IMG/VR virus record: IMGVR_UViG_3300000216_000003
Location: 42,481-106,480 of that record
Direction: 5' to 3' (one strand)
DNA from: a virus
Length of the DNA: 64,000 bases
Shown here: in pieces, positions 19,216 through 63,051 of the stretch
Position numbering within the stretch: the stretch's first letter is position 1
Layout: every line of letters starts with the position of its first letter
The notes under the pieces: model-generated
What the model was told of the DNA's origin: nothing
What the model saw: the letters and a program-made list of their open reading frames with translations, nothing else
Database searches by the model: none
Position numbers and translations under genes: made by a program

Positions 19216-19401
19216 ATGAAACTGAACGTAACAAAAAAAGAATTAAAATTTTTAGATGTTACAGATACTATTATTATAGAAACTAGAGATAAAAAATTAT
19301 TGAAAATAAAGCCTATTGGAAAAGGGTTTAATATTAGTATCGATGATATTATATACGATGTGAGTGATGGAACCATTAAAAAAATAGGGACTAATGATTA
19401 A
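19216..19401 (+). CDS. Hypothetical protein
   Basis: Overlaps the beta' start. Confidence 0.6.
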   Translation: MKLNVTKKELKFLDVTDTIIIETRDKKLLKIKPIGKGFNISIDDIIYDVSDGTIKKIGTND

Positions 19402-22400
19402 TAAACAAGATCTACCTGAAATTACATCATCAAAATTATATTTAGATAGTAAGAAGTCGCAAGTAGATCAAGCCGGTTTAATTTCTGAAATTGCCTTTGG
19501 ACCGGTTAAATCTTATAAATGCTCATGTGGTAATCTTAATTCCAAAGTTATTCATGAGAATCAAAGATGTATTAAGTGTAAAGTGGAATGTATTGATAAT
19601 GCTTCTAGGTATACTAGATTTGCTAAAATCAGTTTACCATTTCCAATACTCAAAAAACTCGAAAGACAAAAACTACTCAAATTTGTAAAGCGGAAGAATG
19701 CACACATATTAGATCCGGTTCAGTCAGATCGACTAACAACTACATCATTTTATATTCAATATATTAAAGATACAGATAAACTGGAATTAGTTACTGATTA
19801 TGATGCTGGAAACTGTATACCATTAGTAATAACTGGCTTATTTACATTATATTTAGGATTGTATATTGCACAAGTATACTTTACTTCTAAATCAGCAGAA
19901 GAACTATTATCTAATTTCTTTTTTGATCTTTTAGTTGTCCCTCCAAATACACGTATGTCTATACTTGTAGAGAAGGATAGTAAGATGACTATGATCACTC
20001 ATGAATTAGATAATATTTATATTAAAATTCTAAGACTAAAGCATTATTGCACTAAGTTTGATACATATCAACAGATTCGAGAATATACTGATATGATAAT
20101 TCAATCATTAGATAATAAGATTGGGATTCCAATTACTGATGATATTTTAATTACATTTGATCAATTAACAAGTAAAATTACTTATTATTGCGATGATGTA
20201 TATTCTCATATTACAGGAACTCTTAGTGGAAAGACTGGGTTGATTCGGGATCAATTTTTAGGTAGATCTATTGACTTTAGTAGCAGAGCAGTAATTGTAC
20301 CAGATCCAACTTTAAAAGCTCATGAAATAATAATTCCTCGTAAGATATTCTTAAAACTATGGCTTATAGAATACTATAGATATTTAAGAACTATGCTTAA
20401 AGATGAATGGGCCACTCTTCAGACAGCGAAGATATTATCATCAGTTACGAAGACAGAAAATTCATATACGAATGAATTAGAATATGTTGATGAATTTATT
20501 GAATACTTTTTTAGAGAAAGTGACTATAGACAACGAATTGTACTCGTAAACAGACAACCGACATTGTGGCGATACGGTATGCCCGGAGTTATTGTATCTG
20601 GAATTACAGAAGAGAATGTAATTAAAATTAGCCCTATTAGCACACAACCATTAAATGCTGACTTTGATGGTGATACATATGCTCTTTATCGGTTACATGA
20701 TAGAGGAGCTATTCAAGAAATATCGCAAAATGCTTACACTTTAAATAATATTCAATATGATCATAATACAGCATATCTTAATACTTTATCAATGGAATCT
20801 AAATATAGTTTTGTTCTTCTAACTTACTCCAAGATAAATAATGATTTAGAATATATCACTATAGATTCTTTAAAATCACTACCAATATATGAAGAACCAG
20901 AGTTAAATAAATTAGTACTATTTAATAAGAAGAGATATTCATATGGAGTATGTCTATTAAATAAATGGTGTGGATTTGATAATATTATACTAACTAAAGA
21001 ATCATCATCTGATGATCTTTCGAAAGAAATACATAAAGATAGTTTGTCTAATGAAGATTACTTTAATAGAATAAATAAAGTAAATCAATTGTTAAGTTGG
21101 TTGGTATCTACTCATTCAAAGGAAACATTAACTTTACCTTTTAACGAAGCAATTACTATTGTACATAGTGCACGTGAGAATCATCTTCTCCAACATCTAC
21201 CATCTAATCCACATATAGGGCATCAAGTACATCAAACTTTTGTAAATGATGCATATAAAAATATTCCGGAAGAGTTTAAACTTGCCAAATTAGCCAAGTC
21301 TAAATATAATAAAGTACAATTTTCAAGATCTCTTGTATCTATTGGATATATTGCAGATGATAGAAATATCATCTCACCAGAACCAGTAACGACTGCTCTA
21401 CTTAGTGGATTAACTGAAGAAGAATTTTTCAGAACATCATATGGAAGTCGTAAAGGTATTGTTGACAAGCATGATGCAACACCCCGGTCTGGATACTTGG
21501 AAAGATCATTAGTATTAAACTTATCTCCCATCGAGATAGCAGAAGAAGATTGTAACTCTACTCATGGATTTATGATTAAAATACAAGATATTAGACATTC
21601 TAAAAGTCTAAAGAATAGATATTATAGTAATAATACTGGTTGGGTATTATTTGATGGTGGAGCAGAACATGTTGGAAATAGTTATTCTTTTAGAAGTCCT
21701 ATTACATGTGCCTCTCCAAACTTTAAGATTTGTCAAAAATGTTTTGGTAGATATGAACAACGCTCTAAATTTGTAGGAATATTAGCCGGCCAATATATTG
21801 CTGAACGACTGACTCAGCTAAGTATGAGATCATTTCACACAAGTGGAAGTGCTACACTACCAGTGAACAATAATATAGAAACATTTATTAAAAATCATTT
21901 AGTTGAAATTGTTAATTATGATGATCATTGTAATTTAATATTCGATATTAAAGTAGATAATCATACATATCAAGAGTTTAAGAAAGTTGAAGGCTTTGTT
22001 AAGACAGCGAATTATGATAATATTCTTAGTTATTCTAATACTGGAGAAGTAGACAATTCAGACATTACAAAAGTCATTCAAGATATCAACAATCTACTCA
22101 ATACAGATAAGAACCCTAACCTAGCAGAAACTTATAGTAGTTTTATTACTAATACACTTTCTGTGGGTGATATCTATTCTGTTTACTGTGAAATTGTATT
22201 GGCTAATTTGTTTGTCAATAAAGATAATGTTGTGCTTAGATATGCTCTTGCAAATAGTGCTGATCCGAAAGATTGGGTTGAATATAAGAAATATAGTATT
22301 AGAGAAGTGCATAGTATTTTATCTTCTACATTATCTTTACTATTTCAACCAAATCATAAAACAATAAAGAACTTATATCGTAAACTACAAACAGGTACTG

Positions 22401-22447
22401 TTGATGATGTTAGTATCTTTGAAAGAATATGGGCTAATAAATTATGA
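19394..22447 (+). CDS. rpoC: Multisubunit RNA polymerase beta'-like subunit, unsplit
   Basis: FGP..YKCSCG...CIKC zinc domain, GKTGLIR..LGRSIDFSSRAVI, NRQPTL, NADFDGD, SGYLER, RSPITC/CQKCFG, TQLSMRSFHTSG. Confidence 0.95.
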   Translation: MINKQDLPEITSSKLYLDSKKSQVDQAGLISEIAFGPVKSYKCSCGNLNSKVIHENQRCIKCKVECIDNASRYTRFAKISLPFPILKKLERQKLLKFVKRKNAHILDPVQSDRLTTTSFYIQYIKDTDKLELVTDYDAGNCIPLVITGLFTLYLGLYIAQVYFTSKSAEELLSNFFFDLLVVPPNTRMSILVEKDSKMTMITHELDNIYIKILRLKHYCTKFDTYQQIREYTDMIIQSLDNKIGIPITDDILITFDQLTSKITYYCDDVYSHITGTLSGKTGLIRDQFLGRSIDFSSRAVIVPDPTLKAHEIIIPRKIFLKLWLIEYYRYLRTMLKDEWATLQTAKILSSVTKTENSYTNELEYVDEFIEYFFRESDYRQRIVLVNRQPTLWRYGMPGVIVSGITEENVIKISPISTQPLNADFDGDTYALYRLHDRGAIQEISQNAYTLNNIQYDHNTAYLNTLSMESKYSFVLLTYSKINNDLEYITIDSLKSLPIYEEPELNKLVLFNKKRYSYGVCLLNKWCGFDNIILTKESSSDDLSKEIHKDSLSNEDYFNRINKVNQLLSWLVSTHSKETLTLPFNEAITIVHSARENHLLQHLPSNPHIGHQVHQTFVNDAYKNIPEEFKLAKLAKSKYNKVQFSRSLVSIGYIADDRNIISPEPVTTALLSGLTEEEFFRTSYGSRKGIVDKHDATPRSGYLERSLVLNLSPIEIAEEDCNSTHGFMIKIQDIRHSKSLKNRYYSNNTGWVLFDGGAEHVGNSYSFRSPITCASPNFKICQKCFGRYEQRSKFVGILAGQYIAERLTQLSMRSFHTSGSATLPVNNNIETFIKNHLVEIVNYDDHCNLIFDIKVDNHTYQEFKKVEGFVKTANYDNILSYSNTGEVDNSDITKVIQDINNLLNTDKNPNLAETYSSFITNTLSVGDIYSVYCEIVLANLFVNKDNVVLRYALANSADPKDWVEYKKYSIREVHSILSSTLSLLFQPNHKTIKNLYRKLQTGTVDDVSIFERIWANKL

Positions 22448-22645
22448 TCTTTGAATTATTACTAGATTTGATTTCATTTAATCGGACAATCCATCCAATA
22501 ATATTTATAATAGGTGTTATTATTGTTATTGGATTAGTTATGGCAACATATGGGATCTAAATTAAATGAAGATATTGTATTAATAGTTATGATAGGTATT
22601 GGAATTGCCGTTATTATATATGAAATTATTAAATTATTAGAATGA
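22444..22645 (+). other. Two short single-TM ORFs (22444-22560, 22550-22645)
   Basis: Coupled hydrophobic 38 and 31 aa ORFs filling the gap. Confidence 0.5.
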
Positions 22646-24930: not shown

Positions 24931-24991
24931 GTATTGATAAATTTGATATAGATATAATGGAATTCAATCACTCTTAAATAGGATTATTTAT

Positions 24992-25297: not shown

Positions 25298-25298
25298 A

Positions 25299-26589: not shown

Positions 26590-26627
26590 AGAGGGTAATA
26601 CCTCTTTTTATTTTAAGGATTTAAAAT

Positions 26628-27674
26628 TTGAAATTACAAGATGCATCCAAAGTTATTTATGAACAAAAATATCAATTAAAAGATTTACATGGAAATCAAG
26701 TTGATAAAGATGTAAATGATACATTTAGACGAGTGGCTAAAGCAGTCGCTAGTGTAGAAGTTAATATGCCAGTAAAATGTAATATATGCTTTGGTTCAGG
26801 CGTATGTGTAAAGCCATTAATAGCCCCAGAACCTCCAGATGTACCATGTCCTAATGGATGTAAAAAATCTGAAGGAGATTTTGATTTAGTAACATTCTGG
26901 GAAGGACAATTTAACTGGGCACTAAATAATGGACTACTTGGCGCTGGTCGTATCATGGCTAATGCTGGAGCCGAAGAATATAAACCAGGGACAAGTCTAA
27001 TTAATTGCACAGTTTCAGATACTATGCCTGATAGTATGGAGGGTATCTTTAAAGTATTGAATCAAGCAGCACTTACACTGAAAAGTGGTGCCGGAATCGG
27101 TTATGAATTTAGTACCCTTCGCCCAAAAGGTGCGATGGTTAATGGTGTGGGGGCAAGTACCTCCGGACCTTTGAGTTTTAGCGACATATTTGAGGCGATG
27201 TGTCGGACGATTAGTAGCGCCGGCGGTAGACGTGGAGCTCAGATGATGACGTTTTCAATTTCACATCCTGATATTGAAGAAGTTATTAATGTTAAACGTG
27301 AAGATGGTCGTCTTCGCAAGTTCAATATTTCCATTCTTATTACTAAAGATTTTATGGAAGCAGTTAAAGATGATGCTGATTGGGATTTATATTTTCCAAT
27401 GTCTAAGGCTGAGGATCCGACTAAAGTAAAGACTATTGCTAAAGAATGGCCAATATACGATAAAAATCATCTATATTATGAATCTCCTGAACCTGAAAAT
27501 AAAAGAGAAGCTATTTGCAGGGTATATAAAACTGTTAAAGCCCGAGATTTATATAATAAGATAATGAAATCTACTTATGATTATGGAGATCCCGGATTTA
27601 TTCTAATTGACGAATATAATGATAAGAATAATCTATGGTGGGCTGAACTTATTAGAGCAACTAACCCGTGTGGT
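26628..27674 (+). CDS. nrdJa: Class II (B12-dependent) ribonucleotide reductase NrdJa, exon 1
   Basis: AGRIMANAG, SLINC, GAGIGYEFSTLRP, GGRRGAQM; ends at ATNPCG. Confidence 0.93.
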
Positions 27675-28534
27675 AGGTAAATTGTTTGCCTCACGTTAAA
27701 AAATTCTGTTAATTGCTGGAAGCCTTAACTGGTAATCAGCAGCCAAACCTAATTAATAGTAGGAAGGTTCAGAGACTACAGGTAATGACATCAATTTAAA
27801 GGAAAGTAATTCCAATGGAAATACTAACATCAAAACAGATTAAAAAAATAATTTTAGGTATTTTAGTATCTGATGGGTATATTATAAAAGAACAAAGATT
27901 TGGGTTTGGAAATAAATCAAAAGAATATGTTGATTATACAAAGAGTGTATTGGATCAAATAACTGGTGTGAATTCAAGTATTACTAAACGATTTTATAAA
28001 AATTACAGTACTACTGGGCATCAATTAAACAATACAAATAAACATCCTTATTTTCGAAAACTACGCAAGATCTTTTACCCAAATGGGAAAAAAACACTTA
28101 CTCCATACATCTGTAATAGATTAGATGCGCAAGCATTTGCCCATATATGGATGGGAGATGGTACGTTGAAACATACAAAAAACAGAGTAAAAAATACTAT
28201 TCAAAATAATGGTATTCTCTGTTTAGAGAGTTTTACAATTCCAGAATTAGAATTATTAGTTAATCGTTTAAATTTATTTAATATCCATTCAACACTTATA
28301 AAAGTACCATGGGGACATGGATACAGAGTTCGTTTTATGGGACCACATTTACAAAGATTTATGTCTTTGGTGTATCCTTATATATTGGATGATTTCAAAT
28401 ACAAGACTCGTCTATATTATAAAACGAAATTATATGTTGATATGTCATTACCGAATGCAGAACATTATGTGATAGAATATTCACATATTGATGATATAGT
28501 CCGATCTTCTTAGAAATAAGAAGTTAACATTTTG
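27675..28534 (+). mobile_element. Group I intron in nrdJa
   Basis: Exon ends in U and intron ends in G; IGS GCCUCAC (27688-94) gives U.G at the 5' splice site; UUGUUU pairs with exon-2 GAACAA (P10); P AAUUGCUGGAAA, Q AAUCAGCAG, R UCAGAGACUA, S GAUAUAGUCC; GAAA-capped P9; splicing restores NPCG-EQ. Confidence 0.93.
27815..28513 (+). CDS. Intron-encoded double-motif LAGLIDADG homing endonuclease
   Basis: ILGILVSDG and FAHIWMGDG motifs; lies between R and S elements and overlaps S. Confidence 0.88.
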   Translation: MEILTSKQIKKIILGILVSDGYIIKEQRFGFGNKSKEYVDYTKSVLDQITGVNSSITKRFYKNYSTTGHQLNNTNKHPYFRKLRKIFYPNGKKTLTPYICNRLDAQAFAHIWMGDGTLKHTKNRVKNTIQNNGILCLESFTIPELELLVNRLNLFNIHSTLIKVPWGHGYRVRFMGPHLQRFMSLVYPYILDDFKYKTRLYYKTKLYVDMSLPNAEHYVIEYSHIDDIVRSS

Positions 28535-29740
28535 GAACAAGGTTTACCCGCCCATGGAGCATGCTTACTTGGCTCTATTAATTTAACTCATTTTGTTAAT
28601 AACCCATTTAGTATTAATCCGCAATTTGATAGTGAAAAGTTTAAGAAAGTCATCGCTATTGCTACAAGATTCTTAGATAATGTTGTTGAAATTAATGGAC
28701 TCCCATTAGATGAGCAACAGAAAGAACTATATAGAAAACGCAGACATGGTCTGGGTATTGCTGGACTTGGAAGTACACTATGTATGTTAAAAACTAAATA
28801 TGGCTCACCAACTGCTATTAAATTCACAGAAAAAATAACTAAGATTATGGCAATTCAAAGTTATGAAACTGGTGTTGAATTAGCAAAAGAAAAAGGTGCT
28901 GCTCCTATTTTACTTGAAACATTTCCAATTAATTTTGAAATTGAAAATCGTTTAGAAGAAGCTGGTATGGATTCTGACTATATTAGTTTAAGTTCTCCAA
29001 AAGAAGGGGAAGTTAAAGGTAGTTGGCTTATGGCATCTTCGAAGTATTTTAAAGATTTTCCAAAACAGTTAGTAGATGATATTGGAGCATATGGTTGTAG
29101 ATTTAGTCATGCTACTAGTATTGCACCAACAGGTACTATTAGTTTAAGTTTCTTTAATAATTGCAGTAATGGAATTGAACCATCATTTAGTCATTATTAT
29201 CAACGTAATATTATTAAAGAAGGTAAAAATACTAAAGATATGGTAGATGTTTATAGTTATGAAATTCTAAAATATAAAGAATTTCTAGATAATACTGATA
29301 ACCCCCATACAGTAGTAGATAATAAGATTGAAGATATTATTGCTAATGGATTACCTGATTACTTTGTAGCTGCGCATGATGTTTCTCCAAAAGAACATAT
29401 TGATATGCAAGCCGCAGCTCAACGATGGATTGATTCAAGTATCAGTAAAACTGTAAATATCCCTACTGATTATCCATATGAGAAATTTCAAGATTTATAT
29501 ATGTATGCTTACGAACAAGGACTTAAAGGATTAGCAGCATATAGACATAATCCTGACGGTGGTCAAGTAGGCGTATTAGTAAAGAAAGATGAATTAGCAA
29601 AGCAGAAATATAGATTTAATCTTGAAGATGGTTCAACTGTTGAATTATCTGGTGATGAAGAAATTGAATATGATGGACAAATGCATAATGTTGCAAATCT
29701 TCACGAGTCACTAAAAGAAGGGTTGTATGGCAAAATGTGA
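28535..29740 (+). CDS. nrdJa: Class II ribonucleotide reductase NrdJa, exon 2
   Basis: EQGLP..GACLLGSINL, RRHGLG, SIAPTGTISL, SNGIEP, DSSISKT; C-terminus EEIEYDG...LKEGLYGK typical of split NrdJa. Confidence 0.93.
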   Translation, partial: EQGLPAHGACLLGSINLTHFVNNPFSINPQFDSEKFKKVIAIATRFLDNVVEINGLPLDEQQKELYRKRRHGLGIAGLGSTLCMLKTKYGSPTAIKFTEKITKIMAIQSYETGVELAKEKGAAPILLETFPINFEIENRLEEAGMDSDYISLSSPKEGEVKGSWLMASSKYFKDFPKQLVDDIGAYGCRFSHATSIAPTGTISLSFFNNCSNGIEPSFSHYYQRNIIKEGKNTKDMVDVYSYEILKYKEFLDNTDNPHTVVDNKIEDIIANGLPDYFVAAHDVSPKEHIDMQAAAQRWIDSSISKTVNIPTDYPYEKFQDLYMYAYEQGLKGLAAYRHNPDGGQVGVLVKKDELAKQKYRFNLEDGSTVELSGDEEIEYDGQMHNVANLHESLKEGLYGKM

Positions 29741-30356
29741 TCATTCTGATCTATTGAGCCTTGATGAAATGCCTTCGGCTTCGGTCGAAGGTACTTCTGA
29801 AAATAATGATTATACTTTAGAAATTAAAGGGAAAACAATATATATTCCAAATACTCATCTTGTTGGTATTGGATTAATATGTTCAATGATTGATATTAAT
29901 GGTTATCCTATGTATAAATCATTAAAGAGAAATGGCCCAGTATTGGATCAAGTTATAAAAAAACAGATATTAACAGTATTACTAGAAACTGAATCCGAGT
30001 CTAATTTTAAAAATGAAATAACTAGAGAATTATTGGAGTTAAATTAAATGTTAGAAATAGGCGGTTTTAAAGTACAAGCGAATGGTAGAATATTAATTTA
30101 TAGTACCCCGTCTGGGCGAAATAATGGAATATATAAAGCTATGATACAAAGAATGTCTGTCCGGGAAATACGTGAATCTATTGATAATTGTTTATATGGA
30201 ACTGGAGATAGTATGATATATGGTATATTAACAGAAGTTATTTATAGAATCCATAATAATGCAGATAAAATACTTGTTATTAAAGGGGTATCTCCTCATA
30301 TTGAATCATCTAAATATAAGAATAAAATTACTAAACAATTATTGGAGTTAAATTAA
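29727..30356 (+). other. Two hypothetical genes (29727-30047, 30048-30356) with shared C-terminal tail
   Basis: KNEITRELLELN / KNKITKQLLELN; 23 identical nt at 30028-30050 and 30337-30359. Confidence 0.7.
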
Positions 30357-30605
30357 ATGCCACTTTATGGATTTAAATGTGAAGGTTGTAATTACGAAGA
30401 AGAAATTGCAGCTAAAATAGCAGATAGAGATAAACCACAACTATGCCCAAGTTGCAAATTATGTAATATGAAAAGGGATTTATTAATTGGAGCAGTAGTG
30501 TATAGCAATAGAATGTTTAGGGCTATTACTAAAAGCGATACTCCAACAGAAAAACCAAGTCGGACAGCGGTGAAGAAGCATTCAAGATATGCTGGCGAAG
30601 ATTAA
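30357..30605 (+). CDS. FmdB-family zinc-ribbon protein
   Basis: MPLYGFKCEGC...CPSC. Confidence 0.8.
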   Translation: MPLYGFKCEGCNYEEEIAAKIADRDKPQLCPSCKLCNMKRDLLIGAVVYSNRMFRAITKSDTPTEKPSRTAVKKHSRYAGED

Positions 30606-30641
30606 CGTTTTAAAAGATCTAATATAGATATTATAATTTTT

Positions 30642-30719
30642 ACTCCAGTAGCTTAAAGGTAAAGCCGCCCGCTCATAACGGGCCGAGTGCATACGGTTCG
30701 AGTCCGGCCTGGAGTACCA
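30642..30719 (+). tRNA. tRNA with CAU anticodon (elongator Met or Ile2), atypical T-stem
   Basis: ACTCCAG/CTGGAGT acceptor stem plus ACCA; D stem GCTT/AAGC; anticodon arm GCCCG-CTCATAA-CGGGC; TTCGAGT loop; promoter motif 30623-30634. Confidence 0.9.
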
Positions 30720-30820
30720 TAAATTACCAATGTTGTAATCATTATTAACACTAGTCTTAGACTTCAAAACTCTAAGGCTAGTATTATTTTTATTTTTACA
30801 ATGACTCTAAAAGGAATAAT

Positions 30821-31081
30821 ATGACTCACCCAAATGGACCAGTTTTTTATATAAACACTGAATATGCACTTCCCAATATATTAACTGAACAAGAAAAAAA
30901 AGCATATATTAATATTATATTATTTGCAAAAAAAGATAAAAAGAAATATGATATGTTGACTCTTATTACTCGTGAATGTCGAAATAAAGATAAAAAAGAT
31001 ATGTTAACACTTTTATATTCACATATTAAGAAGAATAAAATCAAAAAACTCATTCTAAAAGATATAAAGGAATTATCATGA
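30821..31081 (+). CDS. Basic hypothetical protein
   Basis: AAGGA SD; internal KDKK..DMLTL repeat. Confidence 0.65.
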   Translation: MTHPNGPVFYINTEYALPNILTEQEKKAYINIILFAKKDKKKYDMLTLITRECRNKDKKDMLTLLYSHIKKNKIKKLILKDIKELS

Positions 31082-31377
31082 GTTACGAAGGTACTGAAGA
31101 AATTCTATGTGAAAATGGACATCATGAAGCATTTGATTGTTATATGGCTCCAAATCTTAATAGTTGGAAATGTGGAGTATGTGGTAAAAAAGCAGTCTGG
31201 TGGAATGCAATCGATGAGACTAATGGCATCGATGAAGATACTGGAGTTTGTCCTGGTACTGTTGAATTAGAATTAGTAAAAGATTCGAATGAACCTCTTA
31301 CAACTTGTCCGACATGTAAATGTAATACATATAAAATTCCAGTTTATAAAATACCAGAATTAGGGAGAAGAGATTGA
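31078..31377 (+). CDS. Zinc-finger protein
   Basis: CENGH, CGVC, CPTC. Confidence 0.7.
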   Translation: MSYEGTEEILCENGHHEAFDCYMAPNLNSWKCGVCGKKAVWWNAIDETNGIDEDTGVCPGTVELELVKDSNEPLTTCPTCKCNTYKIPVYKIPELGRRD

Positions 31378-50162: not shown

Positions 50163-50189
50163 ATTTCCAACTAAAATAAAAGAGTACCA

Positions 50190-53500: not shown

Positions 53501-53503
53501 AAA

Positions 53504-54658
53504 ATGTCTCCCATATTATCCCAAGAAGAGGTAATTTATAGATGTAAACAAGTTCATGGTGATAAATATGATTATAGTAAAGTAGTTTATAAAGGTAGCC
53601 ATAAAAAACTAATAATTATATGTAGAATACATGGAGAGTTTCAACAAACATATAATAAACACTTCTATAGCAAAACTGGTTGTTACTATTGTGGGAAAGA
53701 AAAATCTTCTAAATATCGTACCCTATCACAAGATGTTGCAATAGCACAATGTAAAGATATTCATGGTGATAAATATGATTATAGTAAATCAATTTATAAA
53801 GATTCTGCTTATCGGAAAATAATTATAATATGTAAAATACATGGAGAGTTCACACAAACACATGCTAGCCATATTAAAGGTTCTGGTTGCCCATTATGCG
53901 CAAAAAATCAACATGGAAAAATATTAATATTGACTCAAGAAGAAGTAATTAAACGATGTATTAATACACATGGTAATAAATATGATTATAGTAAATCAGT
54001 TTATAAAGATTCGCATACAAAAATGAGTATTGGATGTTTAATTAATCCAGAACATGGGGTATTTAAGCAAACATATGCTAATCATATACCTAATGGAGGG
54101 TGTCCTAAATGTGGTTACGAAAAGACCAGAAGTGCTTTAGCTTTATCTCAGAAAGATGTGATCTACAGATGTCGACAAGTTCATGGTGATAAATATGACT
54201 ATAGTAATGTTAAATATATTAATGCTCATACGAAAATAAAAATTCAATGTTTAGTTAATTTAAACCATGGCAATTTTTATCAAACATATGCCAGTCATAT
54301 TAATGGTGCTGGTTGTCCTATATGTGGAACAGAAAATAATCCAGGGGTATATACTTATTCATTATTAGAAAATAACCTAGAACTAAAAAATAAACCGGCT
54401 ATTTACTATATGTTTTTACTTAGTAATAAGAATGAGAAATTTATTAAGAAAGGTATTACTATTCAAAATTCATCTAAAAATAGAAGTTATTCTATTCCAT
54501 ATACAGTAGAAATTTTAAAAGAAGAGTATATGAGTCTATATGACGCATTTTGTAAAGAGCAAGAGGAAAAAGAAAAATATAAACATTTAAAATATGAACC
54601 TATTATTCATTTTGGTGGGCATACTGAATGTTTTACATTAGAAATATTACAACAGTAA
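53504..54658 (+). CDS. Putative homing endonuclease with four zinc-binding HGDKYDYS repeats and a GIY-YIG-like C-terminus
   Basis: Four C..(V/I/T)HG(D/N)KYDYS...C..HG.F.QT...GCxxC repeats; IYYMF..FIKKGIT; FGGHTECF. Confidence 0.75.
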   Translation: MSPILSQEEVIYRCKQVHGDKYDYSKVVYKGSHKKLIIICRIHGEFQQTYNKHFYSKTGCYYCGKEKSSKYRTLSQDVAIAQCKDIHGDKYDYSKSIYKDSAYRKIIIICKIHGEFTQTHASHIKGSGCPLCAKNQHGKILILTQEEVIKRCINTHGNKYDYSKSVYKDSHTKMSIGCLINPEHGVFKQTYANHIPNGGCPKCGYEKTRSALALSQKDVIYRCRQVHGDKYDYSNVKYINAHTKIKIQCLVNLNHGNFYQTYASHINGAGCPICGTENNPGVYTYSLLENNLELKNKPAIYYMFLLSNKNEKFIKKGITIQNSSKNRSYSIPYTVEILKEEYMSLYDAFCKEQEEKEKYKHLKYEPIIHFGGHTECFTLEILQQ

Positions 54659-54671
54659 ATAGGACTTAATT

Positions 54672-55949
54672 ATGCAGTTACAATTATTAGATGTAAATCG
54701 TTTTATTGATAATAAAGGACTACAAGAGGTCACTTCTACAAAGCCTCCTAGTGCCCATGGTTTTGAACTAGGATCATTATGGGATCCTCAAATTTTTGGA
54801 CAAGTTGGTAGTTTTGATAGACGTAGTAGGTTTGCATATATAAATCTAAAGACTAAATTAATACATCCACAAGCATACTCTATTCTTAAATCTACTTCTG
54901 AATCTATTAATAAAATTATGAGTCAGAAAGCGGCATATGTTGTTCAGAATAAAAAATATATTGAAGATGAAACAGGAGAAACTGGATTATCTTTCCTAAT
55001 TAGAACTCTCAATGATGTAGATATAACTACAATTGCAAAAAAAGATAAGATAGCTGATGCTGAGTTTCTACAAAAAAATAAAAGATTAATTCTTGTTGAT
55101 AAGTGGGTAGTAATGCCAGCTGGATCTAGAGATATTGATATTAGTAGGAAAAATGCCCAGGCGACAATGTCTGAAGTAAATGAATTCTATAAGCGACTCA
55201 TATACCTTAGTGGGGAAATCAGTGGTGAAGAAAGCTATGACGCTATTATTATAGATAAACTTCAAAAAACTCTTCAACAAATTATATCATGGGTAAAAGA
55301 TTCCCTTAAGGGTAAGAAAGGTGTATTTAGATCTAATATGCTAAAGAAAACGTTAGATTACTCTACTCGCCTAGTATTAACATCGTCCCCTGGTGTAAAT
55401 CTGGGGGAGATTGGTCTTCCTTGGTCTACTCTGGTCTTGATATATGAGCCTATTATATCTCATTATGTGTTTAAAGATGATTCTGATATTTTACCCGATA
55501 TCAAGAAATCTATGAATAATGAAAATAATATAGACTATCATGACCTTCATAAATTTTTAGAAAGTGTTAATAAAAATCCAGATTTGATTGATATTGACCT
55601 TAAAACTAAATTAATTAATATTGTGAATATTATTATTAAAGATGCACAAGTTATTTGTAAACGTGATCCTGCAGCCTCACGGGATAGTTGGTTTGCAGCG
55701 AAACCAATCATTACAGATGGTCGGGTAGCGGTTGTTAGTTCACTTGATTTGAAGCCTATTGGAGGTGATTGTGATGGAGACACTTTAGAAATTTTACCTC
55801 TATTTACAGAAGAAGCGAAAGAGCAAGCTAAGAAAACTATGAATCCCCAACATTCAAAATCCAAATGGAATAATACTATCAATTCAGGAAGATCTACATA
55901 TTCTATTAATGATGACGCAGTCTCTACTATTTTTGCAACTACAATGTAA
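54672..55949 (+). CDS. rpoC: Second RNA polymerase beta'-like subunit, N-terminal/catalytic part
   Basis: L.DPQIFG, RFAYINL, V.P...R, LKGKKGVFRSNML.KTLDYSTR, KRDP, GGDCDGD. Confidence 0.88.
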   Translation: MQLQLLDVNRFIDNKGLQEVTSTKPPSAHGFELGSLWDPQIFGQVGSFDRRSRFAYINLKTKLIHPQAYSILKSTSESINKIMSQKAAYVVQNKKYIEDETGETGLSFLIRTLNDVDITTIAKKDKIADAEFLQKNKRLILVDKWVVMPAGSRDIDISRKNAQATMSEVNEFYKRLIYLSGEISGEESYDAIIIDKLQKTLQQIISWVKDSLKGKKGVFRSNMLKKTLDYSTRLVLTSSPGVNLGEIGLPWSTLVLIYEPIISHYVFKDDSDILPDIKKSMNNENNIDYHDLHKFLESVNKNPDLIDIDLKTKLINIVNIIIKDAQVICKRDPAASRDSWFAAKPIITDGRVAVVSSLDLKPIGGDCDGDTLEILPLFTEEAKEQAKKTMNPQHSKSKWNNTINSGRSTYSINDDAVSTIFATTM

Positions 55950-55961
55950 TATAGGTTATAT

Positions 55962-57830
55962 ATGAAACAGGAAAAGATAGAAGAATTATATGGATTAACT
56001 AATAATTCAACTTTTAATTCAAATACTGGGCAAGTTAAATTTGGAAAACTTGATCATGGATTCCAGTCAAGTGGATATACAAATAAAAGTAGTGGGATGA
56101 CTCGTAATTTAAATCTCGGAAAAATAAAATATTCGAATGCACCATGGCAAGATAATATTGCTATTAATATACTTAAAAAAAGAGATACGTTTGTTGTAAT
56201 TCCACCTGCCGGAGGAAAAACTGGGCCAGTATTAGATGCCTGGTTAAGTTCTTTTAAAGCATCATTAGGAGGAACTACAAAATTAAATCCAAGTCATAAG
56301 GATTTCTTTAGAGTATTATTTTGTGCTCCTACTAAACAATTAGCAGCCCAATTGGCACACCAAGATTTTAAACCTAAACTATTTGAATTAATAACAACAA
56401 ATCAGGATTTTAAAAATTTAGTTTTAAATACAACAAATATGCACGGCTCTACCGGAAATAATACACCATTAACAGCTAAAGAGCTGCCTGTAATTTATGA
56501 TTTTATTAGAGATATTTGCGATGATATTGTAGGTAGTGATGATAAAAATAGCCATAAGTTAAGATCCAAAAATTTTGGAAATACCATTAAGCCTATATTA
56601 TGCTGTACTTATGAATCAACTGCTAGAATATTAGCATCTCATGGTAATATGATCAACTTGGTAGTTATTGATGAAGTACAAAATACAATACCTCTACCAG
56701 AGACGACATTAATAAAACCAGAAGATTATAAAAAATATGAAGCATATAATAGAATAATTATGACGGCTAAAAAGTCTGGGGCAACTACTGTATTAATGAC
56801 TGGATCTATGAATAAAGGAACAGTTGATGAATTAGCAGAATTTTTCGATTCATCATATGGAACTAACTTTTCAAAAAATAAAATTTTTGCTTTTAATACT
56901 CCCGGCGATGAAGCGAAGAATAGAGGAGATGTTATAGTCGCTCCTATTGAAAGTATGAAACATAGAGATAGTAAATTAAAAATAATACAGAATATTGTTA
57001 ATTCTAAACAAAAGAACAGTGCCATGATCTTATTTGGAATGAGAATGTCTTCTACACAAGGAATTTTTCCATTATTAACTGATGTTATTCCAAAACTCCC
57101 TCCAAGAGATCCTAAATCATTATTCAGTGATGCTAATATTACTATGTCTGATTTTGAAAAAGATCCACATAATAAACCTATGACATTCGATAGACTTAAT
57201 AGTATAGAAGATCCAGATACAAATTTCGTTAGCCAAAATAGAATGAACCCTCTTCCTGTTAAAGGTGTAAGACGAAATCCAGCTAAAACAGATATTGAGG
57301 AACTATTATACTTTAACTTACAGGGAGTTGAAGGACATGATGGTAAAGAAAGCGACGGAGGAAACTTACTAAGAAGGGCAGATCCGAATAATCTATTATA
57401 TCAGTCTGTTTTAAGAGGAATTGGTTTTATTGTTGGTGGAATGGCGCAATCACAAAAAGTGGTTATTCAAAAATTATTCAGAAGTGGGAAGATATACTTA
57501 CTACTAGCAACCGACTCTGTTGGTATTGGTGCTAATTTAACAGTTAAACATTTATATATCCCATCTACTATTAAACCCCCACATTTTACTAAAATAGATA
57601 CTTCTTCACTTGTTCAATTAGTCAATAGAGCCGGTCGCAAAGCCGATATGCCGGGTACTATTTATGTCCCTCTTGAAGATTATGAACATACTAAAATGAT
57701 GTTTGATAGTAATCCAGCAGAAAGTGTTGGAAGAGTTTCTGCTATACCAATGGGTTCATTTAAAAAAGCAAGAGTATATATGGGTCTAAGTCGGTTATCT
57801 CATATTGCTTGGCAAATATTTTCTAAATAG
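55962..57830 (+). CDS. SF2 (Ski2-like DExx) helicase
   Basis: PPAGGKT, APTKQLA, DEVQ, MTGS, ATDSVGIGAN, QLVNRAGR. Confidence 0.9.
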   Translation: MKQEKIEELYGLTNNSTFNSNTGQVKFGKLDHGFQSSGYTNKSSGMTRNLNLGKIKYSNAPWQDNIAINILKKRDTFVVIPPAGGKTGPVLDAWLSSFKASLGGTTKLNPSHKDFFRVLFCAPTKQLAAQLAHQDFKPKLFELITTNQDFKNLVLNTTNMHGSTGNNTPLTAKELPVIYDFIRDICDDIVGSDDKNSHKLRSKNFGNTIKPILCCTYESTARILASHGNMINLVVIDEVQNTIPLPETTLIKPEDYKKYEAYNRIIMTAKKSGATTVLMTGSMNKGTVDELAEFFDSSYGTNFSKNKIFAFNTPGDEAKNRGDVIVAPIESMKHRDSKLKIIQNIVNSKQKNSAMILFGMRMSSTQGIFPLLTDVIPKLPPRDPKSLFSDANITMSDFEKDPHNKPMTFDRLNSIEDPDTNFVSQNRMNPLPVKGVRRNPAKTDIEELLYFNLQGVEGHDGKESDGGNLLRRADPNNLLYQSVLRGIGFIVGGMAQSQKVVIQKLFRSGKIYLLLATDSVGIGANLTVKHLYIPSTIKPPHFTKIDTSSLVQLVNRAGRKADMPGTIYVPLEDYEHTKMMFDSNPAESVGRVSAIPMGSFKKARVYMGLSRLSHIAWQIFSK

Positions 57831-57839
57831 GTAAATGAT

Positions 57840-58940
57840 ATGACATTAACAACATTAGAAGAAGTATATGAAGAATTAAAAAAAGAAGAAGTTACTATTA
57901 ATTCTATCTATTCCTTTAGCCATCCTAAAAAGACTAAAGGAAAATCAAATAACATGAAGATTGGTAGAATATGGTTTAATATATTATTACCAGATAATTT
58001 TCGATTAATAGATGAAGCTGTCAATAAACAAGTATTAGGCGATATTATTTCTGAAATAGGAAAGAAGTATGAGCCAATGGAAGCCTCTAGAGTTGTATCA
58101 TTAATAAATAAAGAAGCTTTTAAAATGTCTAGTATTAATCCTGTTAGTTTTAGTGCGACAGCTTTTATCTTACCAGAACATATAAAAAAGAAGAAAGAAG
58201 AGATTGTATCGAAAGAACTGGATGCAGTTGAATTTAATGTTCAAATATTAAAATTGGTAAATGAATTAATAGATCATATGAAAGATAATGACGAAGGATT
58301 ATATAAATTCATAATGTCTAAAGCTAGTGGTAAAGCAAGACCTCAAGATATTGCTCTATTATTACTTGCTAAAGGGGCCGCAGTAGATATTGAGAATATC
58401 ACATCTCCAGTTTCTACAAATAGTGTTACTGATGGATTTACTCTTAAAGAGTTTTATAATAATGCGGCTGAGGCTAGAGGAGCACTATTTATTAGATCTT
58501 CTGGTGCCGCCGAACCGGGAGCATTGGCTAGAGATGTAGTATATGCTAATTCAAATACTATGATTGAAGGTGATGACTGTAAGACAAAAAAATATTTAAA
58601 TGTAGTAGTGACAGCCTCTATTGCTAATACAATTAAAAATAGATATTATATTAATCCCAAAACAAATGCATTAGATACTATTAAAGACCCCTCAAAATTA
58701 ATTGGAAAAACTATACAACTAAGATCCCCATTATACTGCAAACAAAAAAATAATAACATATGTAAAATATGTTATGGTGAACTTAGTAAAAACATCGATA
58801 CTAAATACATCGGGGTTCTTACCTCAGCTATTATTAATACTGAAGGATTAGAGGGTTACGCTATGGCTGCCCGACATTCGGCTAGTCGAGTAAGTAAACA
58901 AAAGACAGATTTTAATAAAGATATGATACAGTTGGTGTAA
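57840..58940 (+). CDS. rpoC: Second RNA polymerase beta'-like subunit, middle part
   Basis: IGRIWFN, DGFTLKEFY....ARG, PGALAR, DDC, LRSPLYC, ICKICYG. Confidence 0.85.
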   Translation: MTLTTLEEVYEELKKEEVTINSIYSFSHPKKTKGKSNNMKIGRIWFNILLPDNFRLIDEAVNKQVLGDIISEIGKKYEPMEASRVVSLINKEAFKMSSINPVSFSATAFILPEHIKKKKEEIVSKELDAVEFNVQILKLVNELIDHMKDNDEGLYKFIMSKASGKARPQDIALLLLAKGAAVDIENITSPVSTNSVTDGFTLKEFYNNAAEARGALFIRSSGAAEPGALARDVVYANSNTMIEGDDCKTKKYLNVVVTASIANTIKNRYYINPKTNALDTIKDPSKLIGKTIQLRSPLYCKQKNNNICKICYGELSKNIDTKYIGVLTSAIINTEGLEGYAMAARHSASRVSKQKTDFNKDMIQLV

Positions 58941-59002
58941 TTGATTATTATATATAGATATTATAATCTATAGAACCGTCAATAAATAGGAGAACTAATA
59001 CT

Positions 59003-59847
59003 TTGCTTAATCCATTTCAAATTGTTTCAGAAGAGAAGAATCCACCTGAAAATGATGGGTTCTTCCACTTCTTATTGGAACATACTGGATATACACCAGA
59101 ACAAGGCTATCGATTAAAAGATGGTCACCTCACAGATAGTGGGGACTTTAATTGCACAGTTGAACATGTATTACAAAATAATAAAATTCAAATTTATCTA
59201 TCTTCAGATTCGATTATTAAGATAATTGAAAATGGTTAGATAATACATTCACGGGAGCAGAATTAATGATCGAACAACTATTTCAAATGCCATCTATGGA
59301 AAAGCAAGAAAATGGCGATTACACATATCCAACTAAATATACAAATAAACTATTTAAATCTGGGGATACACTTGTATTCTTTAATCTAAATTCAACAACT
59401 GAATACCCAATTGGATTATATAATTCTGTTTCTGAAGCAATTAAAAAAGACATACTAGACTCTCAACAAGAAGAATTATCAAGTATCGACGCATCTATTA
59501 ATACATTAACATCTGATTTTGAAGACGTTGCTTCTGACACAAAAGATTTTAATTCATCAATATCTAAATTAAGAAATGATCTAAGTGTAGTACAGAAAAA
59601 TCTAGATAGAGTAGAAAGTACTCTTACTCATGTTCAATCGAAAGAAGAAATTCAAGAGGTTATTAGAACTGAAATGGCGGCCGTAAAAGATAATTTTGAT
59701 AGTGTAATGAAAGAAGCGATTAAGAAAGAAGCTGAAAAACTCTTAGCTGATTCAAAAAAAGTCGATCCTATGACTATTCTAATGATGACGAAGCAAGGAA
59801 TGGATATGAAAGATGTGATTGATTTAGCTAAGTCTGGGGTATTGTGA
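59003..59847 (+). other. Two hypothetical genes (59003-59239; 59266-59847 coiled coil)
   Basis: Promoter 58953; SD sequences. Confidence 0.65.
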
Positions 59848-60433
59848 TATTAGAACAGTTTCAAAATACTTGTCATTTTATAATGATGAATCCACATCCT
59901 ATTGATAATAATGAAATACATATTCCATTATCGGATAAATATGATTTAAAATTAAGCACTCTATATATGAGAGGTGGAGCTGTCCCGTTTCCTTATATTA
60001 GATATTGGAATAGATATAGGAAACTATATCAAGTGTTTAATATTCATGGGTATGTGGATATTTATAATTGGTTAATAGAGAAAGAGTTACTAACTCCATC
60101 TCTTACAAATGAGTTAGTAAAATACAAACTGGAGAGGTTATGACTCAGTTTGAATTTCAGGAAGTATGTGATTTTATATTCACAAAGATTAAATATCCAA
60201 AACATATGATTATTCCTTTAAATGAAAAACATGCTATATATGTCGATTCTGCACATTCTACTATGTGGGGCACTTATCCAGCTGTTTGTATTAAAGAGAT
60301 TTTAACCCAAATATGTATAGAAGATACTACTACTGGATGCTATCAGAGTGTTTATGGATATATATTAGATAATGCTGATAAAATAAATGACATATATAAT
60401 GAGTTGTTAAAAAAGAAATTGGAGTTATCATGA
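59844..60433 (+). other. Two paralogs (59844-60143, 60140-60433) of the F..C.FI...IPL family
   Basis: Tails NELVKYKLERL and NELLKKKLELS; third member at 60771-61055. Confidence 0.75.
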
Positions 60434-60774
60434 AAACTATTATAGCTGGAAGTCGTACAATTACTAATCTTGGTACTATATATAAAGCAGTAAATGGTGC
60501 CGGATGGTTTATTACTGAAGTTGTTAGTGGTATGGCTAAAGGTGTCGATTCTCTTGGTGAGCGATGGGCAAGAGAAAATGGTGTACTTGTACGTCAATTT
60601 CCTGCTAATTGGGATCACTATGGTCGGAAAGCAGGGCCAATTAGGAATAGTCAAATGGCGGACTATTCTGATGCTTTAATCGCAGTATGGGATGGTAAAA
60701 GTAGAGGTACTAAACATATGATCTATGATGCTAAAAATAAAGGGTTGAAAACATTTGTATATAGAACACTATGA
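60430..60774 (+). CDS. SLOG-superfamily (YspA/DUF2493-like) protein
   Basis: IIAGSR, VVSG.AKGVD, AGPIRNSQM, WDGKSRGT.HMI. Confidence 0.85.
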   Translation: MKTIIAGSRTITNLGTIYKAVNGAGWFITEVVSGMAKGVDSLGERWARENGVLVRQFPANWDHYGRKAGPIRNSQMADYSDALIAVWDGKSRGTKHMIYDAKNKGLKTFVYRTL

Positions 60775-61055
60775 CTTTTTTTGAATTCTTTGATACTTGT
60801 AAGTATATATTAAATAATATGGATTTAGATGATAATATAGAAATAACACTAAATAAATATCACTCATTTCATTTAAATCCATTATTCGCTCATAGTAATA
60901 CTGGCCCACTCCCATATATTAAACATTTTAATATAGAAACAGAAGAATATCGTATTATGACTGAATGGTCTACAAAAAATATGCATCAATATATTGGAAA
61001 AGATAATAAAAAATTCGATATAGAACTTCTGAGACATAAATTGAGAATAAAATGA
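60771..61055 (+). CDS. Paralog of the 59844/60140 family
   Basis: EFFDTCKYI...ITL..., tail ELLRHKLRIK. Confidence 0.7.
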   Translation: MTFFEFFDTCKYILNNMDLDDNIEITLNKYHSFHLNPLFAHSNTGPLPYIKHFNIETEEYRIMTEWSTKNMHQYIGKDNKKFDIELLRHKLRIK

Positions 61056-61624
61056 AAATCAAAAAAGAACATTTAGTAAATATTTGGTATGAAAATGAAG
61101 ATGGAGAGAAATGGTTTCAAGACCCAGAAGAGCAAGGATTACCTGATCCGCCTAGAGGATTTTGTTATCAGTTTTCTAGATTTTCTAATATATTAAGAGA
61201 ATCTTCATTGTATATAGTTCCTAATGAAAAAGTACGTGACTGTATGCATCCTAAAAAAGAAATCAGACCAACTGGTGGATGGGTTGAAGGTTCTGTAGGA
61301 AGAGAATGTAAATTATGTGGTGGAACACAAGTAAAAGAATGGCAAGAAGAATGGGAAAGTGAATGGGATTCCGGATCTTGTCATCCCCATATAGGATTCG
61401 AATCCTCTTGGTCTTCTGATGCTGTGTTGGCAATAGCTAATAGTGGTGATTATTCATTGGGGGATGCAATCATAATATATGCAACTTCTTGTGAACGATG
61501 TATGAATGTTTTATGTCATACTTATAAAGTACCTTCATATAAAGATAAAAATGTAATTGATGGTTATGCTGAAGGTTCTGAAGAATGGTTAAAATGTGGC
61601 ACTAGTTGTAGGTTTTGTGAGTAA
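61052..61624 (+). CDS. Cys/Trp-rich hypothetical protein
   Basis: CKLC, CERC, CRFC. Confidence 0.7.
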   Translation: MKIKKEHLVNIWYENEDGEKWFQDPEEQGLPDPPRGFCYQFSRFSNILRESSLYIVPNEKVRDCMHPKKEIRPTGGWVEGSVGRECKLCGGTQVKEWQEEWESEWDSGSCHPHIGFESSWSSDAVLAIANSGDYSLGDAIIIYATSCERCMNVLCHTYKVPSYKDKNVIDGYAEGSEEWLKCGTSCRFCE

Positions 61625-61737
61625 ATAATGTTAACGGCGGGATTACTAATATGAGTCAGAAACAATTTTTTCAAAGTTTTGATATAGATATAAATAAGTA
61701 TCAAAAACGTCTGTTAATTAACTCAGAGGAGAGTAAG

Positions 61738-61860
61738 ATGGAATCAAAAGATATGTGTGACTGTGAAGAAACATGTGCAACTTGTCTTTGCCAAGAAAAA
61801 CCTAAGCCGGAAAATCCGGTAAAGTATGAAATGGATGGTATTGATACTATTTGTTTCTAA
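61738..61860 (+). CDS. 40-aa Cys-rich (metallothionein-like) peptide
   Basis: GAGGAG SD after promoter variant 61683; CDCEETCATCLC. Confidence 0.55.
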   Translation: MESKDMCDCEETCATCLCQEKPKPENPVKYEMDGIDTICF

Positions 61861-61873
61861 ACTAGTCTTAATT

Positions 61874-62231
61874 GGGGGTGTACTGGTTTCGACAGGGTAG
61901 TGAACGATGATTAGGCGACTCGGTATAGTGCTACCGTAACAGGCTAAAACTTTAGGTGCCAATGATGAATTCTACGCACCTGTTGCTCTCGCTGCTTAAA
62001 CAGTAAAGAGTAAACGGCGCCCGTCCGGGCGTGGCAACAGAAGGTCGTAAGACCAAATACAAGCTGGATAATAGCCGCCAGTTAATCAAAAGGGCATCGT
62101 GCATCATGACGGTACATGAGTCGAAGAGGATTGCTAGGTTCTTTAGACTATAATACTAGCAAAATAGTCGTATATCCTGATTAATTAAATAGTTATTCTG
62201 GACGCGGGTTCGATTCCCGCCACCTCCACCA
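61874..62231 (+). ncRNA. ssrA: tmRNA (one-piece); tag ANDEFYAPVALAA at 61958-61999
   Basis: GGGGGTG/CACCTCC stem with G3.U, ACCA end, GGTTTCGAC, GACGCGGGTTCGATTCCCGC T-arm, tag ending LAA. Confidence 0.96.
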
Positions 62232-62394
62232 AACAACCTTAAAGAGTAAGTAACATTACTCTTTTATTTGACATTATAAAGAGGTTAATAATGTTACAGT
62301 CAATTTTAATCATATCTTTATTTATTATTATAGTTGTGATTATTATATATTCTAACAATTTAAAATATTAATTATGTAAACCAAAGGTTACTTA

Positions 62395-63051
62395 ATGTTA
62401 AAAACAACGAAGTATTTAGATATAACAGATCATGAAATTGTAGCTAAGAAAAAATGCACCGTCTCTATCAATTTAAAAGAATATGATAAAGAAACGATAC
62501 TTAATACTAATAAATTTATCAATTTGCCAGGTATTATAGACATTTATTTTCCAGATGAAGATGACGTTATTCATATTATTTTAAATTATGATGTTAATCT
62601 AATGAAATCAAAAAATGTAATTGATGAAAAAGATGATATTCATATTAATTATGAAGAAGGTGATATTATCATTCATCAAGAATTTGCAGAGTCTGGATTA
62701 GATATGCGAGTATTGATTAAGTTATTACAGGGTCGTATTAAATACATTAAAGACCCATCAACCCTTCTTCAAATGCTTCAGCAAATGCTTCCTGGTAGTG
62801 ATTTAGTTCATTTGGAATTAATCATATCGAATATGATGAGAACTGATGATGGTAAAGTCTGCCGAGAGAAAGGGAATTATAAAAACTGTAATGTATTAGG
62901 GCAGACTAATATCGCACTAGAAGATTCTTGGCTTTCTGGTATATCATACAGGAATATCGACACTTCTATTTCAAAGGCTTTAGTATCTGAAAAGAATATT
63001 AAAAATAATCCTATTGAAAAAGTGTTAAATGAAGAATTCAGTAAATTATAA
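62395..63051 (+). CDS. rpoC: Second RNA polymerase beta'-like subunit, C-terminal part
   Basis: HLELIISNMMR (cf. HIEVIVRQM), DSWLSGISY (cf. SFISAASF), PIEKVL. Confidence 0.7.
   Translation: MLKTTKYLDITDHEIVAKKKCTVSINLKEYDKETILNTNKFINLPGIIDIYFPDEDDVIHIILNYDVNLMKSKNVIDEKDDIHINYEEGDIIIHQEFAESGLDMRVLIKLLQGRIKYIKDPSTLLQMLQQMLPGSDLVHLELIISNMMRTDDGKVCREKGNYKNCNVLGQTNIALEDSWLSGISYRNIDTSISKALVSEKNIKNNPIEKVLNEEFSKL

Follow-up and report, generated by a model that had tools for sequence, protein, structure and literature searches.

A 64,000-nucleotide stretch of DNA, the final 64 kb of the IMG/VR virus record IMGVR_UViG_3300000216_000003 (positions 42,481 to 106,480 of 106,480 bp; CheckV completeness 41%), very probably encodes two paralogous multisubunit RNA polymerases (RNAPs), each fragmented to a different degree. 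We call the whole stretch the window. Set A, a candidate non-virion RNAP (nvRNAP), has an unsplit beta' subunit and a beta subunit in two pieces. Set B, a candidate virion RNAP (vRNAP), has a beta' in three dispersed pieces. In the model that we favour, set B would be packaged in the virion, injected, and used to transcribe the early genes; set A would be made after infection for the middle and late genes. The beta' of set B would be cut after the catalytic double-psi beta-barrel (DPBB) and again inside the trigger loop, with two trigger helices that come from separate polypeptides and pair non-covalently. The beta of set A would be cut where AR9 nvRNAP beta is cut, and its beta' would never have been cut. 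The breaks in these genes would be derived and recurrent, produced by insertion of mobile or cassette DNA into whole genes.

Two questions about the RNAPs of jumbo phages are open, and the lineage described here can be used for both. The first is whether the virion and non-virion enzymes arose by duplication or through two acquisitions (PMC7598289, PMC13282480). The second concerns fragmentation: is the multi-piece state ancestral (Iyer et al. 2021, PMC7824862) or derived? In a single radiation, the virion-type (v-type) beta' occurs as one chain (~1005 amino acids, aa), two (430+590) or three (425+366+218), and the non-virion-type (nv-type) enzyme ranges from whole through half cut to fully cut; break points vary among relatives, with endonuclease genes at several of the break points. 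The existence of two RNAPs, the three-piece virion beta' and the unsplit enzymes of the phages called mReC have already been published.

The beta' gene of set A (19394-22447 (+)) is a single open reading frame (ORF) of 1017 aa that matches the Pfam families Rpb1_2 (2.3e-19) and Rpb1_5 (9e-19). It contains a zinc ribbon of the form CxC...CxxC at residues 43-62 (C43/C45/C59/C62), the NADFDGD motif at 421-427 (D423/D425/D427), a second zinc site with four cysteines, a bridge helix and a trigger loop, all of them invariant across 22 homologues. About 50 clusters of metagenomic homologues, 35-50% identical and on contigs of up to 317 kb, make up the family; most of them are unsplit, and the clade has a support of 100 in our trees.

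The beta subunit of set A is in two pieces. The first, beta-N (32858-33982 (+), 374 aa), has no Pfam match. A profile of its family has one significant match in the PDB, the beta-N of AR9 nvRNAP (7s00_c, E 4.3e-11), and the two proteins have an identical end point; in the window it falls after the HKSHKGRVCP...PG motif (HKSHKGRVCPVTISNAAPG) of beta region D. The second piece, beta-C (35415-37331 (+), 638 aa), matches Rpb2_6 (8e-36), with Rpb2_7 below threshold (24.1 bits; cut-off 32.1), and aligns over its full length to AR9 nvRNAP beta-C. Among the proteins of Erwinia phage RAY, its nearest is nvRNAP beta subunit 2 (6.5e-11), and no vRNAP beta is matched. An unsplit beta of 999 aa aligns with both pieces. 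Between them lie a 102-aa ORF (33979-34287 (+)), which from its sequence carries a lipoprotein-like signal, and a GIY-YIG/NUMOD homing endonuclease gene (34335-35414 (+)) identified by Pfam and PHROG matches.

The beta' of set B begins with an N piece (54672-55949 (+), 425 aa) that matches Rpb1_2 (1.4e-08) and carries the catalytic DCDGD motif; it lacks the zinc ribbon and has no cysteine in its N-terminus. An HNH homing endonuclease gene (53504-54658 (+)) stands immediately upstream. Next comes a superfamily 2 helicase (DEAD and Helicase_C domains; 55962-57830 (+)), found at the same position in four of four relatives, and then the M piece (57840-58940 (+), 366 aa). This has the bridge helix, the second zinc site and the first trigger-loop helix, and ends ~17 residues past the trigger-loop histidine. 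It matches PHROG families of the beta' C-terminal part; in the intact copy it corresponds to residues 655-817, and in bacterial beta' to ~665-900. A 3.45-kb block (58941-62394 (+)) of eight small ORFs, with a transfer-messenger RNA (tmRNA) gene at its end, separates the M piece from the C piece, p218 (62395-63051 (+), 218 aa), which comprises a beta-rich domain at the position of sequence insertion 3 (SI3), the second trigger-loop helix and region H.

These findings uphold most of an earlier note on this DNA. It had given the intact beta' the length of 1017 aa confirmed here, had read the second beta' as colinear pieces of 425, 366 and 218 aa with a helicase, small genes and the tmRNA between them, had assigned an N-terminal four-cysteine zinc domain to the intact copy only, and had counted a single beta of 374+638 aa in the window; no other beta is found in the 106-kb record. 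It had also made its reading depend on a beta' similarity in 62395-63051.

That similarity is not easily seen. The 218-aa piece has no match by Pfam, PHROGs, phmmer against the PDB, BLASTP against the intact beta' or tblastn against 50,697 phage records, and neither this piece nor the intact beta' gave a hit in pattern scans of IMG/VR. A search of IMG/VR with aligned members of the intact-beta' family retrieved seven relatives, and two of these genomes are close to complete, at 285 kb (95%) and at 315 kb with terminal repeats (100%). In four relatives, beta' M and C form one ORF of 587-599 aa. The 366-aa piece aligns to residues ~4-361 of the fused ORF (37-38% identity, E 1e-63 to 1e-75) and the 218-aa piece to residues ~372-590 (29-36% identity, E 5e-19 to 3e-41). 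The two alignments meet cleanly, with neither overlap nor duplicated residues, and the block between M and C is missing from the four fused genes. All three pieces, 1009 aa together, align one after another to a whole mReC-type beta' of 999-1007 aa (E 5.6e-50, 1.1e-37 and 8.4e-15).

Profiles and structure agree with these alignments. A hidden Markov model (HMM) of the p218 family matches residues 778-996 of the mReC-type beta' (5.9e-62), and in profile-profile comparison the family falls at the very C-terminal end of two unsplit beta' families (98%, E 2e-13; 89%, E 2e-6). The AlphaFold2 model of the 218-aa piece (predicted local distance difference test score 85.9) is beta-rich in its N half and helical in its C half; in Foldseek, phiKZ gp74 and AR9 nvRNAP beta'C score best, and the matches after them are almost all bacterial beta' chains. 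With profile, fold and alignment in accord, 62395-63051 is proven to encode the C-terminal piece of beta'. At the same time, the natural M+C and N+M+C fusions identify the small gp244-type virion protein as the C-terminus of beta', a strong proof of the 'Rosetta stone' kind for an assignment that in 2016 rested on an HMM E-value of 0.05.

Where does the chain break? In comparison with E. coli beta', the M piece ends shortly past MRTFH(936)IGG. The 218-aa piece begins in the segment at the SI3 site and adds the second trigger helix (GLDMRVLIKLLQGR against GGLPRVADLFEAR) and region H. Alignment thus places the M/C break inside the trigger loop, at the site of E. coli SI3. Because the M piece ends after the first trigger helix and the C piece brings the second, the trigger loop would be built from two polypeptides, an arrangement of mechanistic interest for RNAP catalysis.

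Such a break invites the thought that the three-piece beta' was recently broken by insertions and is non-functional, leaving the phage to use set A alone. A 3.45-kb cassette with its own promoter-like motif does lie exactly in the break, homing endonucleases are plentiful, the gene for ribonucleotide reductase (RNR) is also in pieces, and the first trigger-loop helix of set B is degenerate relative to bacteria. We consider this reading very unlikely. Each of the set B pieces reads as an undisturbed ORF from start to stop, and nothing is overlapped or duplicated at the break; set B keeps DxDGD and the cysteines of the second zinc site. A full HMMER scan found 104 homologues of p218, ~46 of them stand-alone at 200-250 aa, 17 fused in proteins of ~550-600 aa and two in proteins of ~1010 aa. 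The 15 closest stand-alone homologues (36-49% identity) are all 216-222 aa long. Since at least 15 clusters have kept this constant length, the split form appears to be inherited and under long-term selection, not a fresh lesion. In SPN3US, moreover, a beta' in three such pieces is both functional and essential (PMC5105663). For a scan of loci, the diversity of a broad p218 alignment proved too great, and a narrower one gave two distant loci only.

Alternatively, the pieces could be exons joined at the RNA or protein level, by a group I or group II intron, by trans-splicing or by an intein, with mature subunits that are single chains. RNAP genes of AR9 and of SPN3US-type phages are known to carry introns (PMC5105663), and the GIY-YIG endonuclease in the beta gap shares its frame with beta-C. 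Against this, a search of the window with Rfam gave no intron at gathering scores; all pieces begin with a start codon and end with a stop of their own, intein motifs are absent, and stand-alone homologues of the same length are common. The gaps contain complete independent genes, a promoter-like motif, the tmRNA gene and a terminator-like hairpin. Among RNA-library contigs, the only RNA data searched for them, there is no joint 58940/~62395 or 33982/~35415. Joining of this kind seems extremely improbable.

We take up now the two fragmented, paralogous enzymes that we prefer. Which of them is the virion type? The annotated genome of phage RAY served as the reference, searched with phmmer. The 425-aa piece matches vRNAP beta' subunit 1 (3.6e-22) and no nvRNAP protein; the 366-aa piece matches vRNAP beta' subunit 2 (1.3e-14) better than nvRNAP beta' subunit 2 (2.6e-7). 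The p218 HMM picks out RAY gp168 (3.9e-9), an unannotated 241-aa protein encoded 2.5 kb downstream of vRNAP beta1. The PHROG families point the same way: set A beta' favours 2987/3015 over 2986/2962, and set B the reverse. In trees, set B groups with RAY vRNAP and the 'a' set of mReC with values of 97-98 in the Shimodaira-Hasegawa-like approximate likelihood ratio test (SH-aLRT); within this group set B is sister to RAY vRNAP, with mReC-a outside (98). We conclude with good confidence that set B is of virion type, an apparent orthologue of the phiKZ/SPN3US vRNAP, and with moderate confidence that set A is a probable non-virion type, half fragmented. The two kinds of enzyme named in the earlier note are in this way borne out by orthology.

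The beta of set B is expected just past the end of the contig. In four of four relatives, a large beta (open frames of 1504-1555 aa) lies downstream of the homologue of the PD-(D/E)XK nuclease gene that follows p218 in the window (63063-63584 (+)). In relatives, this nuclease lies between beta'C and the large v-type beta: in three (L014, L018, L020) the beta comes directly after it, and in the fourth (G003) the nuclease is ~3 kb upstream of an Rpb2_6 match. The 1542-aa beta of relatives matches RAY vRNAP beta1 (1.2e-25). In the window, only a 114-aa resolvase-like ORF stands between the nuclease and the contig end. By synteny, a set B beta of ~1540 aa would therefore begin nearby. The earlier note's call for a second beta is answered in part: it is absent from the 106-kb record, and relatives suggest where it would lie. 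We found 280 v-type beta homologues in all. The final 40 bases of the window matched nothing in a metagenome scan; one Logan contig extends 11.5 kb beyond the window end.

Several points weigh against two paralogous enzymes of these types. The partner beta of set B was not found in the record, and a search with RAY gp154 for a small beta-C of the SPN3US gp218 type found no partner either. No candidate for a gp68/gp226-like specificity subunit was recognized, although no test aimed at one was made. The virion and non-virion assignments, the packaging and the assembly of the pieces are all inferred from orthology and homology. Metatranscriptome contigs from the same study speak for the model, since they reach over short stretches into beta'N, the helicase, beta'M, the cassette and the p218 region, but DNA may have been carried over into those RNA libraries. 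The phylogeny proposed as a check in the earlier note is firm for set B and weak for set A: the latter joins RAY nvRNAP with an SH-aLRT of 56 in one tree, in which RAY, on a very long branch, is the one Chimalliviridae genome. In the first tree, RAY nvRNAP stands beside bacteria, apart from set A. The set A beta' itself scores 121 bits against bacterial beta' (E 2e-34) and 24 bits against RAY nvRNAP (2.7e-7), and being so much closer to the bacterial protein it might have been acquired separately.

These last points open the way to an alternative: set A would be an independently acquired, slowly evolving RNAP of bacterial-like or mReC-like kind, and its AR9-like beta cut would be convergent. 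Besides the match to bacterial beta' and the shift of RAY nvRNAP from one tree to the other, the tree placement of set A beta' agrees with it: its nearest family is the mReC 'b' beta', to which it is sister, not inside (SH-aLRT 91). On the other side stand the beta pieces, since beta-N has AR9 nvRNAP beta-N as its sole significant PDB match and ends where that protein ends, and beta-C matches RAY nvRNAP beta2 and no vRNAP beta. In addition, mReC, the clade of the window and the Chimalliviridae each have exactly one v-type set and one other. A single ancient pair of paralogues is the simpler account of this pattern, and we regard independent acquisition as unlikely.

How do the two enzymes compare with known ones? 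In SPN3US, the vRNAP beta' consists of gp240 (519 aa, N), gp42 (431 aa, M) and gp244 (240 aa, C), the beta consists of gp241 (1401 aa) and gp218 (222 aa), and the non-virion enzyme is in four pieces (PMC5105663, PMC7598289). The vRNAP counterparts are gp180/gp80/gp176 with gp178/gp149 in phiKZ and gp163/gp270/gp168 with gp164/gp154 in RAY. The 218-aa C piece is the counterpart of SPN3US gp244 and RAY gp168. The set B beta' resembles the phiKZ-type vRNAP in the similar sizes of its pieces (425/366/218 against 519/431/240), in its lack of a zinc ribbon and in the end of its M piece at the same profile position (PHROG 2962, 424 of 433); the large beta of relatives likewise has a long N-terminal extension (~1540 aa against 1401-1527). 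It differs in that identity is ~21-28%, that sister phages keep M and C fused (587-599 aa) and that the M/C gap of the window holds a promoter-bearing tmRNA cassette. The earlier note had presented the three-piece beta' as the oddity, and in this it was mistaken, for N/M/C is the canonical vRNAP layout (PMC5105663, PMC7598289). What is new is a whole beta' with a zinc ribbon paired with a two-piece beta.

Set A resembles the AR9 nvRNAP (PDB 7S00/7UM0) in its beta, split into N and C at the same place, and nvRNAPs generally in its preference for nv-type PHROG families. Unlike the nvRNAPs of AR9 and phiKZ (7OGP/8QUE), in which beta' is cut after the DPBB, its beta' is one 1017-aa chain with a bacterial-type zinc ribbon. 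Set A is also much less diverged from bacterial beta' and beta than the Chimalliviridae enzymes are. Cellular RNAPs offer parallels to both breaks in set B. The gamma/beta' split of cyanobacteria coincides with the first, after the DPBB (PMC7598289). The second falls at the trigger-loop site that holds SI3 in E. coli and cyanobacteria, and p218 starts with a beta-rich domain there. In cells, a domain is inserted at the trigger-loop tip yet the subunit is one chain, whereas in set B the chain itself is broken.

The mReC, or multisubunit-RNAP-encoding Caudovirales, have large genomes, with more than 200 kb in three of the published contigs (Weinheimer and Aylward 2020, PMC7481178). Their supplement gives 'a' pairs with beta/beta' of 1364/1005 aa and 'b' pairs of 1017/903 aa, and lists a 149,482-bp contig (metagenome 3300017989); the text does not equate sets 'a' and 'b' with virion and non-virion enzymes (PMC7481178). 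The family next to set A beta' (~900 aa, 27-30% identity) belongs to phages with two wholly unsplit sets, one with beta' of 889-922 aa and beta of 999-1069 aa, the other with beta' of 999-1008 aa (a 783-aa frame in genome G008) and beta of 1361-1375 aa. As the 149,482-bp contig appears in the mReC supplement, these phages are the published mReC. Like them, the lineage of the window is uncultured, largely aquatic and large in genome, with two RNAP sets that correspond to 'a' (v-type) and 'b' (nv-type). Unlike them, it has a v-type beta' in three pieces and an nv-type beta in two, dispersed, whereas in mReC all four genes are whole and the pairs are adjacent. The window RNAPs also fall outside the mReC definition, by which each beta and beta' is single, at least 800 aa long, and NADxDGD is present, and the relatives of the window are absent from the mReC supplementary tables. 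The earlier note had inferred a distinct lineage from the unsplit beta'; this copy does set the window apart from phiKZ and AR9, although it is not unique, being shared by ~50 clusters and, with all other subunits also unsplit, by mReC.

We favour a history of repeated, insertion-driven fission for these genes. Homing endonuclease genes stand between the two beta pieces (34335), ahead of beta'N (53504) and within the RNR gene (27815); a promoter-bearing cassette with the tmRNA fills the M/C gap; and break points differ between relatives. This combination argues for repeated fission. RAY vRNAP is sister to a clade that still has fused M+C, so the M/C cut may have been made more than once, a tentative conclusion given the long RAY branch. 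The evidence favours the trigger-loop tip, which tolerates large insertions in cells, as a permissive fission site. The lineage could be a living intermediate between mReC, with two whole RNAPs, and the Chimalliviridae and AR9, with both fragmented; we put the chance of this a little short of even. If so, the RNAP splits of jumbo phages would be derived fissions through inserted DNA and not multi-piece relics from before the last universal common ancestor, and the trigger-loop tip would be a fission hot spot, cut independently here and in phiKZ-like phages.

The breaks described above are unlikely to be artefacts of assembly. Positions 53759-64000 are reproduced with zero differences by Logan contigs from two runs, and this identity indicates that the gene layout is not one assembler's mis-assembly; the two runs are possibly source samples of the record and do not count as independent samples. 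A 284,614-bp contig encodes a beta' identical to that of set A. The window has a GC content of ~30% and carries phage genes (NAD ligase, a virion structural protein, RNR, homing endonucleases, tmRNA and tRNA-Met). Its DNA is detected in marine metagenomes, and none of 50,697 deposited phage genomes is closely related to it.

A promoter-like motif recurs in the window. The copy TATAGATATAAT at 18763-18774 (+), with a second at 18555-18566, heads the unit that contains the unsplit beta'. The motif (TATAGATATWAT) has 33 matches where 11 are expected, one of them 19 nucleotides (nt) upstream of tRNA-Met at 30623. An exact copy at 58953-58964, starting 13 nt after the beta'M stop, opens the M/C block. 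As a discriminator between early and late genes the motif was rejected, since it precedes units of both polymerase sets. A copy with one mismatch precedes the 114-aa ORF at 63610-63954, which has a weak match to Holliday-junction resolvases and occupies the place where relatives begin the large beta gene.

Within the M/C block, a YspA/SLOG gene lies at 60430-60774, and the tmRNA gene (61874-62231 (+); 114.6 bits) encodes the tag ANDEFYAPVALAA. This RNA is the deepest feature in both RNA libraries; a 347-nt metatranscriptome contig covers 61883-62229, and several unrelated contigs share just the final 30-40 bases of the tmRNA. Behind it, a terminator-like hairpin (62242-62270 (+)), read by eye from the sequence, pairs AAGAGTAA with TTACTCTT ahead of a T-rich run. 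Several paralogous ORFs of 94-106 aa fill both the cassette (59844-61055) and a gap in the RNR gene (29727-30356), and they carry similar C-terminal tails (...KYKLERL, ...KKKLELS, ...QLLELN).

The RNR gene, of class II type, is in three dispersed pieces within 26628-32006: 26628-27680, 28532-29740 and 31374-32006, the last with a TSCPD-type C-terminus. A LAGLIDADG endonuclease gene (27815-28513) occupies the first gap, and small ORFs and tRNA-Met the second. In relatives, RNR is a single protein of 800-928 aa encoded between the helicase and beta'C. A helicase profile detected no link between the window helicase and the SWI/SNF helicases of RAY. The 440-aa protein encoded at 50190-51512 is kept just upstream of beta'N in relatives. 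A sigma-like factor had been considered for this position; the conserved neighbour instead resembles DpdA and tRNA-guanine transglycosylase (TGT), with structure matches in the Atlas at template modelling scores of 0.6-0.9. A DpdA/TGT-type transglycosylase suggests that the phage DNA may carry 7-deazaguanine modifications.

Relatives differ in the order and integrity of their RNAP genes. In G005, G002 and G001 (loci L015, L019 and L022), nv-type beta-C precedes beta-N, the opposite of the order in the window and in the protein. The nv-type beta' is broken at residue ~298 and/or ~380, before NADFDGD, at L019:2333-6848 and L023:1-3375; in G002 an HNH-like ORF lies in the gap, and neither site is that of the canonical split, which follows the DPBB. 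Two uncultured jumbo phages of 223 and 275 kb (L115:3612-8456 and L116:3852-8378) encode a 1508-1614 aa protein whose last ~600 residues are v-type M+C; it follows a separate 310-aa beta'N and has an N-terminal part of ~900 aa. Finally, the cultured marine Cobetia phage Carin-5 (155 kb; L031) has a sigma factor gene directly upstream of an unsplit beta' (1083 aa) and beta (927 aa), and its beta' groups in trees with Rhizobium phage TM30 and bacteria.

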